Below, piece by piece: positions 1-5,943 of a stretch of DNA of 12,747 nucleotides. The translations under genes and the position numbers were made by a program. Source of the DNA: a virus. Taxonomy: Duplodnaviria; Heunggongvirae; Uroviricota; Caudoviricetes. The DNA lies in IMG/VR virus record IMGVR_UViG_2531839474_000002. One strand, written 5' to 3'. The notes below the pieces were generated by a model. The model searched no databases. It was not told the origin of the DNA and saw only the letters and a list, made by a program, of their open reading frames with translations. How positions within the stretch are numbered: position 1 is the stretch's first letter; each line of letters begins with the position of its first letter.

Positions 1-116
1 ATTTTCTTCACAACTAACTCTTTAATCTATTAATTATATTGGCATACTCAACCACAAAACCTCCAGCAGTTTTGCCATCTTTGCTTTCCTAACAAACATC
101 CACCGGACATGACAAC

Positions 117-142
117 AAAAACCGGAGCCGGACTCCGGTTTT
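117..142 (-). terminator. Rho-independent, potentially bidirectional terminator at the end of the tail fibre gene cluster
   Basis: Stem CCGGAG (122..127) pairs with CTCCGG (133..138) around a 5-nt loop, flanked by an A-run (117..121) and a T-run (139..142). On the minus strand the hairpin is followed by TTTTTGTTGTC, 15 nt after the small-ORF stop. Confidence 0.65.
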
Positions 143-156
143 GTGAAGCTGTCGGG

Positions 157-426
157 TTACTTCATCCCGCCAATATTTTCCCACGTCCCGTCAGCACGCA
201 GGATTTGCAGCGGTCTTACCACACACTGTATCTGCTTTTTATCCGCATCCAGTATCACCACCTGCGTGATTACCCTGGCCTGCTCCGGAATAATACCATT
301 CTCATCTGACTCCAGAATGTCTGCCGGCCCCAGACGCAGTTGTGCTGTAAGCGACTGCACGTGTTCACGGCCATCATGCTTTCCGCAACCACACAGACAC
401 TGCATAAGTTTTTTTAGTATATTCAT
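157..426 (-). CDS. Hypothetical small protein (89 aa) translationally coupled to stf; function unknown, possibly a fibre-associated chaperone or accessory protein
   Basis: ATG at 426 is preceded by a strong AGGAGA ribosome-binding site and lies 1 nt after the stf stop (TGAcATG). Its stop TAA at 159..157 is followed by a terminator hairpin. Protein MNILKKLMQCLCGCGKHDGREHVQSLTAQ... has an N-terminal Cys/His cluster (C-x-C-x-C-x2-H-x4-H). It does not resemble the lambda Tfa sequence as I recall it. The ORF-track start 44 codons upstream overlaps stf and is rejected. Confidence 0.6.
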   Translation of the reverse strand: MNILKKLMQCLCGCGKHDGREHVQSLTAQLRLGPADILESDENGIIPEQARVITQVVILDADKKQIQCVVRPLQILRADGTWENIGGMK

Positions 427-427
427 G

Positions 428-1741
428 TCATTCTCCTGTTCTGCCTGTATCACTGCCCACTTCATCCAGCCCCTTAACATCCTGCCACGGCCCGTCACCA
501 AACCTGACCTGCAAATGCCGAAAAAACCCCTGAACCCGTGTGGCATCTTTGGGGTCAAGAAAGGTCAGTCCGGTGATGAGCGCACCATCTGTACCCGGGA
601 ACCAGCCATTGCTGTTTGTCTCAATAATGCTCCCCGGCCCCAGACGAAAACGGATTTGTGTCTCCCCCGGGTCGCCCTTCGGTCCCTGAGGTCCGGTTGC
701 CCCCACCGGGCCAGCCGCACCTGTTTCTCCTTTCGGTCCCTGTGGGCCTGCCGGGCCTGCCGCACCGGTATCTCCCTTTGGACCCTGTGGACCTGCACTT
801 CCCGTCAGACCGGTCTCTCCCCGCTCTCCCATGTCACCTTTCGGCCCCTGCGGGCCTGCCGGACCAGCATCACCTGCCGGTCCCCGTTCGCCGGTTGCCC
901 CGACAGGGCCGGTGTCACCGCGCTCTCCCTTATCACCCTTCGGCCCCTGAGGACCCGCGGGCCCCTGTTCCCCCTTTGGCCCGGGAGGTCCCACCACGGT
1001 GGGGATTCGGTTTACGGCCTCTTCCGCCGCTATCCTGCTTTGTTCCGCTGACTGTGCGCTTTCTGCTGACTCCCGGGCTTTTTCTGTTGCGGTCGTTGCA
1101 TCCCTGGCTGCATTACCGGCTGCACTTTCTGCCGTCTTTCTTGACAATTCAGCATCTGCTGCACTTTGTGATGACTCACTGGCTTTTTGAGCGGCCGCAG
1201 AGGCCGAGGACGAGGACGCATCCTCTGACTGCTTTGCTGAGGCTGCACTTTCTGCCGCCTGCCGGGCTGACTCCGATGCCTCCCCTGCTGAAGTGTCAGC
1301 ATTTGCAGCGCTCTCTTCTGCCTGACTGGCTGATATGCCGGCATTCCTCGCTGACGTCTCCGCCTCTCCGGCATTCTTCTTCGCCTCCTCAGCGTGACGC
1401 GCCACCTCTTCCACCATCAGTTCAAAACGACGCAGTGCCTCCGGCCGGACATCATCCTCCGACATGGCACCGAGAAAATCATTCAGCGTACCCGGCTGAG
1501 AATCTTCATACACGGTGATGGTCCCGGCATGTGACGGCGGGAATCCCTCCACCAACAGAATGACGCTGTACTGACCATACTCAACGTCCATTGTGTAACG
1601 CCCGGCTTCATCCGGATTTTCTGAGGCCACCGTGTTCACCACCACCGTGGTGCTGTTACGTCTGGCTTTCAGCTGGATTGTGCAGTTCTGTACCGGTTTT
1701 CCTGTGCCGTCTTTCAGTACACCTGAAATCTTTACTGCCAT
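428..1741 (-). CDS. stf: Side tail fibre protein (437 aa): lambda Stf-type N-terminal anchor, Ala/Ser/Glu-rich helical region, collagen-like Gly-X-Y domain, short C-terminal domain
   Basis: ATG at 1741 preceded by GGGGTGA; the ORF-track start is an upstream GTG. The N-terminus MAVKISGVLKDGTGKPVQNCTIQLKARRNSTTVVVNTV... matches the recalled lambda Stf N-terminus. Residues ~112-250 are low-complexity A/S/E/Q (likely coiled coil). Residues ~253-362 form about 36 uninterrupted Gly-X-Y triplets (GPPGPKGEQGPAGPQGPKGD...). The last 77 aa are unrelated to lambda Stf. Confidence 0.9.
   Translation of the reverse strand: MAVKISGVLKDGTGKPVQNCTIQLKARRNSTTVVVNTVASENPDEAGRYTMDVEYGQYSVILLVEGFPPSHAGTITVYEDSQPGTLNDFLGAMSEDDVRPEALRRFELMVEEVARHAEEAKKNAGEAETSARNAGISASQAEESAANADTSAGEASESARQAAESAASAKQSEDASSSSASAAAQKASESSQSAADAELSRKTAESAAGNAARDATTATEKARESAESAQSAEQSRIAAEEAVNRIPTVVGPPGPKGEQGPAGPQGPKGDKGERGDTGPVGATGERGPAGDAGPAGPQGPKGDMGERGETGLTGSAGPQGPKGDTGAAGPAGPQGPKGETGAAGPVGATGPQGPKGDPGETQIRFRLGPGSIIETNSNGWFPGTDGALITGLTFLDPKDATRVQGFFRHLQVRFGDGPWQDVKGLDEVGSDTGRTGE
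662..991 (-). repeat. Collagen-like Gly-X-Y coding repeat (about 36 triplets, 9-nt periodicity at the DNA level)
   Basis: Near-identical DNA units recur in phase, for example tcggtccctgtgggcctgccgggcctgcc around 750-780, tcggcccctgcgggcctgccggacc around 840-865 and tcggcccctgaggacccgcgggcc around 940-965. This is coding repeat within stf, not a CRISPR array. Confidence 0.9.
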
Positions 1742-1749
1742 ATTCACCC

Positions 1750-1779
1750 CACAAAAAAGCCCGCCTGAACCGGCGGGCT
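1750..1779 (-). terminator. Rho-independent terminator downstream of lom
   Basis: Minus strand reads AGCCCGCC GGTTCA GGCGGGCT (8-bp GC-rich stem, 6-nt loop) followed by TTTTTTGTG. It lies 21 nt after the lom stop and immediately before the stf ribosome-binding site. Confidence 0.7.
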
Positions 1780-2424: not shown

Positions 2425-2448
2425 AAAAAAGGCACCATTTCTGGTGCC
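2425..2448 (-). terminator. Rho-independent terminator downstream of J
   Basis: Minus strand reads GGCACCA GAAA TGGTGCC (7-bp stem, 4-nt loop) followed directly by TTTTTT (plus-strand A-run 2425..2430). It sits 22 nt after the J stop and upstream of lom. Confidence 0.65.
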
Positions 2449-2469
2449 CTTATATGGGTTATAACAATT

Positions 2470-5400
2470 TCAACGAATACTGATGCCGGAAGCGGCTTTT
2501 TTGGTCACAATCACCGTACAGTCGGTGATATTGCCTGCCCCCTGATTCCCTTTCTGGAAAATCTTAAACTCCAGAGTGACGCTTCCCCTGCCACTCGGCA
2601 TATCAATAACCGCACTGTAGCTACCGGGAATGGCCCCTTTAGTTTCTCTGGATGCGATTAATACGCCGTTTTTGCGAACTTCAAAACCATAACCCGTGTA
2701 TCGCGTGCCTCCGGGGTTATTTCCGCTCCCCGGATCGGCATACGCTATACCGTTAAAAATAATGGGCGGAATAATAATCTGACGGTCAAAGTTATGATCA
2801 TCGCTGATGGTGACTGTAACCGTACCGTCTGGTGTTTCCGTGTTACCCCACGTACCGACTTTTTTCGGGAAGGCTTTTGATACAGCTTTAACGAAATCCC
2901 CTCTGACCTGGGTCGCCTCCAGCATGCCCTTAATCGTACAGTTCTGGTTAATCGTGACATTGTTGAGCGTCCCGGAGTTCGCATTCACGTTACCGCTGAT
3001 ATCAGCGTTTTTCGCCGTCAGCCGCCCGTCCGGTGTCAGGGAAAATGCCGGTGGATTGCCGCCGCTGGTGATGGTCGGGGCCGTCAGGCGCTTCAGGAAC
3101 ACGTCGTTCATGAATATCTGATCGCCCTGACCAACAAACATTGGTCGTGTGTTGCCATTAGACGGATCAATAAACGCAATACGGTTAGCGGCAACCAGAA
3201 ACTGGCTCAGCTTGCCTTCCGGCGTGTCCTCCATACTGAGGCCAATACCCGCGACATAATGTTTGCCGTCTTTGGTCTGCTCAATTTTGACAGCCCACAT
3301 GGCATTCCATTTATCGTTGACATCCTTCCACTCTTTCGAAAACTCCTCCAGTTTGCTGGCGTTATCCTCCGTCAGCTCGACTTTTTCCAGCAGCTCCTTG
3401 CCGAGATGAGATTCGGTTATCTTGCCTTTGAAAAAATCCAGGTAACCTTCCGCATCATCGCTCGCCCGACCGACGGCCTCCACGAACACCGATTTGCCAA
3501 CGGTGTTCACACTGCGAACGTAAAAATAATAATCATGGCCCGGTTTGATATTGATACTGGCGGCTATCCAGTACATCCCCGTACCAAGATAGCGGGCTGT
3601 GGTTTCAACCTGCCGGATATCGGCAATCCGCTTTTCCGAAAACCAGAACTCAAACTGTACCGTCGGGTCATAAACCGCAAGATGCGGCGTGGCGGTTATC
3701 TGAAAATAGCCCGGCGTCAGCTCAATCTGTGACGGCGCTGCCGGTGCGGCAATCCTGAACGATACCGACGCCGGGTCACCCTGCTGTCCCCACGCATTTA
3801 CCGCCCGGACTGTCAGCCTGTAGTTCCCCGGCGCCAGTTGCCTGAAACGATATTCGGTTTCCGTCGTCCGGGCCGTGCTGACCAGCCGCTCACTGCCGTC
3901 GTCTGCTGCCACAGTCAGACGAAGCATAAAGCTCACCCCCTTCACCACCTTCGGCGTGTCCCAGCGCGCCAGCACCTGATATTCCCCGCTGTCTGCCGAG
4001 ACTTCGGCGGTCAGGTGCTGCACCGCTGGCGGCGTGACACCATTCACCGTGCCGCTCTGGTCGCCGTCAAAGTGCGCACCGTTATCCACGATAGCCTCTT
4101 TTTCAGGCACATGCTGCACGGCAGTGACAGCGTACGTGCCGTCGTCGTTCTCACGGATACTCACGCAGCGGAACAGGCGCTGGCGCAGCGTCGGCAGCTT
4201 CAGCCCCCACACGCTGTATCCGGCAACGCCGTCAGGAACCCGGCTCACTTTCACCTGCACGCCGTCGGTGACGGACTGGACCTCCACGCTGACCGGACTC
4301 CCCGTCCCGTCGACCAGGCTTATCAGTGTGGTGCCGGAGGCTGGCAGCGTGATTTCACGGTCGAGCGTCAGCGTCCGGGTCTGGCTGTTCACCGCCAGCA
4401 CGCGACCACCGATGCTGATACCCGCATAGTCATCATCGCAGATTTCAATGACGTCTCCCGGCACATGGCGAAGCCCTTCTACACCCACGCTGAAGTCCAC
4501 GGTCTGCGTTTCCAGCAGTTCCGTTTTAATCAGCCACAGCCCGGCGCGGTGCGCCTGCCCCCGGCTGGTACAGCCAAAGGCATCCATCTTCGTGACGTTA
4601 CGACCGTAACGGGCAATGGCCTGCGTGTCTTCAACCAGCTCTGTCGCCGTCTCCCAGCCGTTGTCCGGGTCAATCCAGTTCACCTCAACGGCGTTATGGC
4701 GGTCCTTCAGGGCGCTGAAGCTGTAGCGGAACGGCGCGCCATCATCCGGCATCACCACATTACTGCGGTTATAGGTCCACACCTTATCCGACGGTCGGTC
4801 CTGCACGAACGTCAGCGTCTGCCCGTTCCATACCGGCATACAGCGCATCGCCGAGCAGAAATCACTGAGCACATCCCACGCCTTGCGCTGTGTGGTCAGG
4901 TACGCATTACAGGTGATGCGCGGCTCCGTGCCGCCAAAACCGTCCGGCACCGACTGATCGCAGTACTGGCCGATGACATACAGCGCCCATTTGTCCACAT
5001 CCGCCGCACCGAGACGCTTCCCCATGCCGTAGCGCGGATGGGTCAGCATATCCCACAGACACCAGGCCATATTGTTGCTGTATGCTGGCTTAAACGTTCC
5101 GTCCCAGATACCGCTGTATTGCCGCGTCTGCGGGTTATAGTTCGACGGCACCTGCAGAATGCGCCCGCGAAGATGATAATTACGGCTCACCTGCTGACTG
5201 CCGAACTGTTCCGAGTCCACCTGCACGCCGACCAGTGCCGTGTTCGGGTAGCACTGTTGCACATCGATGATTTCGGTGTATGACGACCAGAGCGTTTTGT
5301 TCTGCAGCTGGTCTGTGGTGCTGTCCGGCGTCATCCTGCGCATCCGGATATTAAACGGGCGCGGCGGCAGGTTACCCACCACCACCGAGGCCAGATACTG

Positions 5401-5883
5401 CGAGGTGGTTTTGCCCTTAATGGTGATGTCTTTTTCCGTCACCCAGCCACCATTACGTTGTATCTGAACCAGCAGGCGGACTTCCGACGGATTCCGGTCC
5501 CCCTTTGAAGTGGTTTCCACCAGTGCCTGCACACCGAAGGTAAAGCGCAGACGGTCGATGTTTGCCGATGTGATGGTCCGGGTAATCGGCGTGTCGTACT
5601 TCACCTCCGTACCCAGCACCGTCTCGGAGCCGGAGGATTCAAATCCCTCCGGCGGTGTCTGCTCCTGCTCACCTGCCCGGAACACCACCGTGACACCGGA
5701 GATATTGGTATTCCCCTCACTGTCCAGCACTGGCGTACTGTTCAGCAGCACACTTTTTAATCCATCCACCGGACCTTCAATCGGCCCTTCACTGATGGCG
5801 TCTATCACGCTCAGCAGCTGGGATGATTTCAGGTTGTCCTTCGCTTCGCGCGGGGTATGCCCCTTACTGCTGCCTTTACCCAT
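2470..5883 (-). CDS. J: Central tail fibre / host specificity protein J (1137 aa), with a divergent C-terminal receptor-binding region
   Basis: ATG at 5883 preceded by GAGAGGA, giving [34 protein letters not shown].... The first ~985 aa match recalled lambda gpJ closely; the last ~150 aa differ substantially although a few motifs remain (DMPSGRGSV, the terminal KK..GIS). The ORF-track start 15 codons upstream is rejected. Stop TGA at 2472..2470. Confidence 0.95.
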
Positions 5884-5904
5884 TCCTCTCGCTCCAGAAA
5901 CGAC

Positions 5905-5925
5905 AAAACCGCCCTGAGGCGGTTT
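5905..5925 (-). other. Stem-loop in the I-J intergenic spacer (AAAACCGCC CTGA GGCGGTTTT, plus-strand text)
   Basis: Perfect 5-bp GC stem (5909..5913 pairs with 5918..5922) flanked by an A-run and a T-run, inside the 60-nt spacer between the I stop and the J start. Function unknown. Confidence 0.3.
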
Positions 5926-5943
5926 CACATAAAACGTTTTTCA

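Follow-up and report, generated by a model that had tools for sequence, protein, structure and literature searches.

The closest described relative of the gene considered here is EPclA, a collagen-like protein widespread among the prophages of E. coli O157:H7 Sakai and EDL933 and defined by the domain order PfN-PCoil-Col-PfC, with a total of 437 aa, of which PCoil accounts for 116 aa and Col for 111 aa (Ghosh et al., 2012; PMC3368898). Its copies share more than 90% identity and lie in a prophage tail-gene context, and its PCoil domain is built of Ala-x-x-Ala/Ser-x-x-Ser heptads almost without Leu, Ile or Val. The recombinant protein from Sakai is a trimer that dissociates when denatured; its CD spectra combine collagen and alpha-helical signals, the collagen (42 C) and the PCoil (52 C) melt independently and each cooperatively, and EM reveals a hinged dumbbell of ~50-62 nm, whose stalk is divided between collagen (~30 nm) and coiled coil (~16 nm). 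Recombinant PfC serves as a trimerisation module and lets the collagen helix refold rapidly, and PfN alone is largely monomeric (PMC3368898). A second point of reference is the side tail fibre (Stf) of Ur-lambda, in which residues 1-91 fold into a helix and a beta-sheet of six strands and 12 copies from four trimeric fibres make up a collar at the gpV/gpM junction; a flexible linker (92-101) leads from there into a trimeric, Ala/Ser-rich coiled coil (102-393), and the tip of lambda Stf binds OmpC (paper behind PDB 9E7M/9MGH, 2025). A third is provided by the EPclB-type lateral fibres of short-tailed Stx phages (933W L0121, Sp5 ORF67/ECs1228, phi24B gp61). Like the protein described below, these combine a PfN-like beta-sandwich anchor with a coiled coil, collagen and PfC, and have the same 89-aa PfC ORF downstream (Sp5 ORF68), but they are 645 aa long, with two collagen runs parted by a Pf2 repeat, and attach to a podovirus adaptor ring (gp62), not to gpV/gpM.

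The window, that is the whole 12.7-kb stretch of DNA analysed here, is one unbroken lambda-type tail module on the minus strand, in the order U (3' end), V, G, T, H, M, L, K, I, J, lom, stf and a small ORF (Table 1). From V to stf every ORF is full-length and has full-length Pfam matches. The J tip protein at 2470-5928 (minus; 1152 aa from GTG) has all the lambda J domains, the family of the C-terminal receptor-binding domain among them. The interval 428-1741, singled out in an earlier sequence-only reading as a side tail fibre gene, is correct as a minus-strand CDS, with its ATG start at 1741-1739 and its TGA stop at 430-428; the ORF listing begins two codons upstream, at GTG 1747, and the ATG start yields the N-terminus MAVKISG... 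that is shared with lambda Stf.

We identify this gene, with little doubt, as the side tail fibre of a lambda-like prophage in its EPclA form. The protein displays PfN, the PCoil heptads, a single uninterrupted 111-aa collagen domain, PfC, more than 90% identity to EPclA and the J-lom-stf gene order, and its total and domain lengths equal those in Table 2 of PMC3368898 exactly. It is 97% identical to VT1-Sakai H0004 (the Sp15 copy) in a gapless alignment with 14 substitutions, and shares 96% identity with gp23 of lambda_2B8, a siphophage that has been isolated. Compared with EPclA (ECs2717, ECs2941/VT1-Sakai H0004), it agrees in architecture, lengths and place after J-lom, and is set apart by allelic differences only; the likeness to prophage-encoded collagen-like proteins of pathogenic E. 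coli that had been noticed from the sequence is therefore genuine, down to exact EPclA lengths and 97% identity to a listed copy. The exact 437-aa allele is absent from a collection of 15 billion proteins, in which the neighbouring 89-aa protein has an exact match, and the best genomic matches to the stf region are only ~95-97% identical. The trimer, which had been proposed as a check and is positive in the EPclA literature, the collagen and coiled-coil conformation, the melting temperatures and the dumbbell shape were all shown elsewhere, on a ~97%-identical protein.

Table 1. Features of the stf region in the window (all coordinates are positions in the window)
Feature	Position	Strand	Basis and remarks
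stf CDS, very probably an EPclA-type side tail fibre	428..1741	minus	437 aa + stop; ORF and translation, three Pfam domains, 97%/96% identities
Collar/anchor (beta-sandwich), aa 1-91	1469..1741	minus	PDB 9e7m_Ta/9mgh match; Ur-lambda homology; predicted docking on the tail tip
Linker and helical end of Pfam PfN, aa 92-133 (coiled-coil start)	1343..1468	minus	Pfam phage_tail_N; Ur-lambda layout
PCoil, Ala/Ser/Glu-rich trimeric alpha-helical coiled coil, aa 134-250	992..1342	minus	Composition, periodicity, EPclA experiment
Collagen triple-helix domain, aa 251-361, 37 Gly-X-Y triplets, ~32 nm	659..991	minus	Triplet count, Pfam Collagen, EPclA CD/EM
PfC distal knob, aa 362-437 (PF06820 aa 363-426 = nt 464-655) + 11-aa tail	431..658	minus	Pfam; trimerisation/refolding role
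89-aa PfC-only ORF	157..426	minus	27-aa Cys/His-containing extension with a C-G-C motif, PfC aa 28-89; Pfam E=8.6e-35
AGGAG Shine-Dalgarno of the small ORF	433..437	minus	Within the last stf codons, 6 nt upstream of the start; sequence read
Hairpin AAAACCGGAG / CTCCGGTTTT + T-run, probable intrinsic terminator ending the tail operon	111..142	minus	RNA fold -25.8 kcal/mol (70-nt stretch)
Terminator-like hairpin between lom and stf	1758..1779	minus	Window scan; near-identical hairpin precedes orf-401 in lambda (L002 713-734)

The domain order proposed in the sequence-only reading, namely a Stf anchor, a helical spacer, a collagen shaft and a small distal domain, is recovered both by Pfam and by the alignments, and the collagen and phage-fibre families that it had suggested searching are all matched: phage_tail_N (PF08400; aa 1-133, E=1.2e-69, full profile coverage), Collagen (PF01391; E=2.9e-18, 65.8 bits versus a cut-off of 27.2) and Phage_fiber_C (PF06820; E=1.4e-35). 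The spacer (aa ~95-250) contains 29% Ala, 17% Ser and 15% Glu over aa 101-250, and its Ala and Ser residues recur with a 3.5-residue periodicity in the register S-A-x-x-A-x-x, a regularity reached in none of 500 shuffles. The Gly-X-Y run has no interruption, just as had been claimed, with a chance of in-register Gly of ~1e-31, and the earlier count of ~36 triplets falls one short of the actual 37. Pro occupies 18 of the 37 X positions, followed by Glu (7), Asp (6) and Ala (4), and the Y positions hold Ala (8), Thr (8), Lys (7), Gln (6), Arg (3) and Pro (2); the acidic residues are thus mainly at X, and Lys, Ala, Thr and Gln at Y. The C-terminal domain, previously given as 77 aa, is present as PfC and amounts to the 76 aa after the last triplet. 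Its suggested role in trimerisation agrees with the behaviour of recombinant PfC (PMC3368898), and the epithet 'uncharacterised' that it had received is to that extent not wholly true.

Against the N-terminal part of lambda Stf (orf-401), aa 1-93 are ~95% identical, with 5 differences, and aa 1-117 ~91% identical, with 10; similarity is detectable up to aa 153 (77% identity over a 160-column alignment of aa 1-153), past which the alignment gives low-complexity resemblance only. The ~100 lambda-like residues reported before are accordingly a roughly correct, slightly short estimate. The same aa 1-93 match residues 1-93 of the 'Tail fiber protein' in PDB 9e7m_Ta/9MGH (E=7e-53), which together with a gpM 99% identical to that of lambda means that the anchor mechanism is well supported by homology; going by the solved structure, we infer that the collar of the window phage likewise binds at the gpV/gpM junction. 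One part of the earlier interpretation fails, namely that the spacer is a foreign part of a chimera: behind its collar, lambda Stf too runs into an Ala/Ser-rich trimeric coiled coil of this kind (Ur-lambda 102-393), and the spacer corresponds, in shortened form, to the proximal coiled coil of lambda, such that the departure from lambda starts at the collagen run. Lambda and Ur-lambda Stf (P03764; PDB 9E7M, 9MGH) hence share with the window protein the collar, the linker, the type of coiled coil, the locus after lom and the upstream hairpin, but differ in having a long coiled coil, a hinge, a gp37-like OmpC-binding distal domain and a Tfa chaperone gene; in the window, collagen, PfC and the 89-aa PfC-only ORF stand in for lambda's distal region and Tfa. 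As the similarity ends at aa ~153, and as the downstream gene encodes PfC alone and not Tfa, the protein is a Stf by anchor and position and is not of the lambda type along its whole length.

These comparisons suggest a model for the assembly of the fibre. The stf gene is transcribed towards the end of the late tail operon U-V-G-T-H-M-L-K-I-J-lom-stf-small ORF; because terminator-like hairpins flank lom, its expression presumably needs antiterminated late transcription, the second of these hairpins lying between J and lom at 2428-2451 (minus). Three Stf chains would form one fibre, and their three N-terminal collars (aa 1-91) would dock round the gpV/gpM junction as in Ur-lambda. From there a short linker would lead into a trimeric Ala/Ser-rich coiled coil of ~16-22 nm, and this in turn into a flexible hinge, a 37-triplet collagen segment of ~30 nm and a trimeric PfC knob of ~7 nm. 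PfC, which trimerises by itself, would fix the register of the chains, so that the collagen helix could zip up from the C-terminus. In the assembled fibre, the PfC knob may contact a host surface component and thereby speed or broaden adsorption.

This last step is the one most exposed to an alternative, for PfC might act purely as a nucleus for folding and registration that binds no receptor, with the fibre acting non-specifically, via steric effects, by reversible contact with surfaces or by touching the capsid, or with another protein giving specificity. We regard such a limited role as possible, if less than likely. It accords with the capacity of PfC alone to trimerise and permit collagen refolding (PMC3368898), and with the tiny, nearly invariant nature of the family, since a search of 1.84 billion representatives with the PfC profile yields no more than 100 proteins, most of them E. 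coli fragments, and the E. coli copies are ~93-98% identical to each other, unlike typical fast-evolving receptor-binding tips. It also accords with a cryo-EM preprint on the podovirus phi24B, in which the tips of the EPclB-type fibres point to the capsid and fibre function is listed as an open question, and in which the related fibres of lambda_2B8 are reported not to recognise BamA of MG1655; in light of these two observations the older view that the EPclB fibre binds BamA/YaeT has come into doubt. Yet the C-terminal region of Stf evolves with a dN/dS of 0.25, above that of PfN or Col, the fibres of the EPcl family swap C-termini (PfC versus Peptidase_S74 types) in the manner of receptor-binding modules, and the tip of lambda Stf does bind a receptor, OmpC. 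The siphophage phi330, whose stf is 97% identical to that of the window, needs OmpC, a dependence which its source does not assign to any tail protein.

As for the fold of PfC, AlphaFold2 monomer models of Stf aa 354-437 and of the small ORF (19-sequence alignment each) reached mean pLDDT values of 46 and 50; they are all-beta, agreeing with the CD data, and are unusable for fold comparison, and the phi24B preprint met with the same prediction failure for the homologous domain. A search of PDB sequences with the PfC profile returned noise only, at E-values of at least 0.026. Most of the seemingly 'divergent' PfC matches are frameshifted or chimeric gene calls, and two giant repeat proteins matched by the profile (P0241, P0258) look unrelated. 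Three others (P0252, P0264, P0270) share only a generic fibre repeat, 'LDxxGKxPAxDGSLIT', that resembles the N-terminal half of PfC. In P0259 (565 aa) four tandem PfC-like modules (VVVLDAD...GILQVRRADGTWxEIP) are followed by a collagen run, a layout indicating that a PfC-like module can also be an internal repeat and not a C-terminal knob alone.

We gathered 80 related viral-contig loci, which contain 47 full-length stf copies including that of the window. The modal form, with 437 aa, a 111-aa collagen domain and a 76-aa tail, is seen in 40 of the 47, and the other lengths differ by whole triplets, in agreement with PMC3368898. The window copy, in a single frame and of modal length, is not a pseudogene; the fragment or frameshift that the sequence-only reading had named as its possible undoing is thus not what we find. 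Among 40 alleles the dN/dS of stf (Nei-Gojobori) is 0.19 overall, with 0.11 for PfN, 0.33 for PCoil, 0.125 for Col and 0.25 for the C-terminal region, and every domain is under purifying selection. The region is matched in ~4,900-5,000 of 5,426 complete E. coli genomes, a single genome having as many as 16-18 such places; 390 deposited phage records, mostly of Stx-converting phages, match it as well.

Such abundance raises the prospect that stf is the intact-looking leftover of a defective prophage, with no fibre made in the source strain: many of the copies within a genome reside in cryptic prophages, ~11 of the 80 related loci have lost the frame between the PfN/collagen and PfC parts (L006, L008, L014, L024, L031, L037, L050, L056, L065, L072, L076), and defective, frame-lost copies (EPclA*) were also recorded in 2012 (PMC3368898). 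We deem this unlikely for the window, where the tail genes V to stf are all full-length, in ORF and in Pfam match alike, and stf itself is in one frame at modal length. In the ~11 frame-lost loci the 89-aa downstream ORF is still intact. Finally, it is most improbable that the protein is not a phage part and is instead a collagen-like surface adhesin or virulence factor of the cell, akin to streptococcal Scl or Legionella Lcl: a host-side role was left open by Ghosh et al. (2012) and NCBIfam collagen-adhesin models (Lcl, SclA/B) match the Gly-X-Y region, but these matches fall far under the curated cut-offs (84 versus 500 bits and similar) and are confined to the collagen repeat, Stf is without signal peptide or anchor and is the product of a tail-operon gene with a virion collar domain, and the EPclB homologue has been located at the Sp5 tail by immuno-EM (Mondal et al., 2016). 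Scl1/Scl2 of S. pyogenes and BclA of B. anthracis parallel Stf in having an unhydroxylated Gly-X-Y helix, stabilised by Pro and charge, and a globular trimerisation nucleus; they differ in being secreted and anchored to the cell or spore and in their unrelated globular domains, the sequence relation being confined to the repeat.

The side tail fibre is accompanied by the 89-aa PfC-only ORF, which starts at 426-424, 1 nt past the stf stop (stop-C-ATG). The junction CAGGAGAATGACATG recurs in 30 of the 33 loci listed; the ORF is 89 aa long in all related loci, and wherever the stf ORF abuts it the spacing is the same 1 nt. This arrangement, along with the AGGAG motif, predicts translational coupling of the small ORF to stf. 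Its PfC is 35% identical to that of Stf, and its family (PHROG 576; 'phage tail fiber C-terminal domain-containing protein' in RefSeq) has thousands of sequences and occurs in E. coli, E. albertii and C. rodentium, the terminator element also following the C. rodentium copy. The small ORF is under purifying selection, with a dN/dS of 0.11 among 49 alleles, a value biased downward by the choice of loci by protein similarity, and of 0.29 when compared with the C. rodentium copy. Siphovirus and podovirus backgrounds alike have this ORF alongside the collagen-PfC module. In related prophages, cargo in the form of type III effectors comes directly after the terminator of the small ORF, comprising nleB2/nleC/nleH1 in O55:H7 (L001 1-3155) and NleG in lambda_2B8 and C. 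rodentium (L084 1020-1517; L086 3033-3416). The fibre module in this sense forms the border of an exchangeable effector locus; the window stops 156 nt past the small ORF, short of any cargo of its own.

Several potential roles for this mini-protein were considered. The Sp5 equivalent, ORF68, is non-essential and was suggested to be a 'reservoir' for fibre variation (Mondal et al., 2016); a reservoir cassette recombining with the 3' end of stf is not supported here, the two PfC-coding segments sharing just a 13-nt match. The only fusions of collagen to the small-type PfC that we found are a rare microhomology deletion, in which collagen is joined straight to that PfC at a GPAD microhomology (P0077), and two singleton read-throughs in which Stf is frameshifted into the small-ORF frame (P0296 and P0297; 494 aa). 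All three look like sporadic mutations or assembly errors and not like a programmed event. Programmed frameshifting as a route from stf to the small ORF was likewise discarded; the frame of the latter is open for 44 codons upstream into stf (427-558, minus), an extent that is not unusual, and Mondal et al. (2016) found no shift site either. A lipoprotein or signal peptide, as would befit superinfection exclusion, was rejected on account of the consensus N-terminus MNILKKLMQRLCGCG, which has neither a hydrophobic core nor a canonical lipobox. A more speculative notion, to which we give only slender credence, is that the 89-aa protein might be neither a leftover nor a silent 'reservoir' but a working partner of PfC-tipped fibres, forming a separate trimer that caps or co-assembles with the Stf knob in the place of Tfa and tunes assembly or host recognition.

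In terms of the fibre itself, the architecture, oligomeric state, thermal stability and shape were already published in 2012 and the anchor was solved in 2025, and to these our analysis adds nothing new; its value lies in the correct annotation of an intact EPclA-type Stf within a complete lambda-type tail module. Beside this otherwise known fibre, the leads are the conserved PfC-only mini-protein and the fold and ligand of PfC, and the identity of that ligand bears on the spread of Stx and effector-carrying prophages among O-antigen-bearing E. coli.
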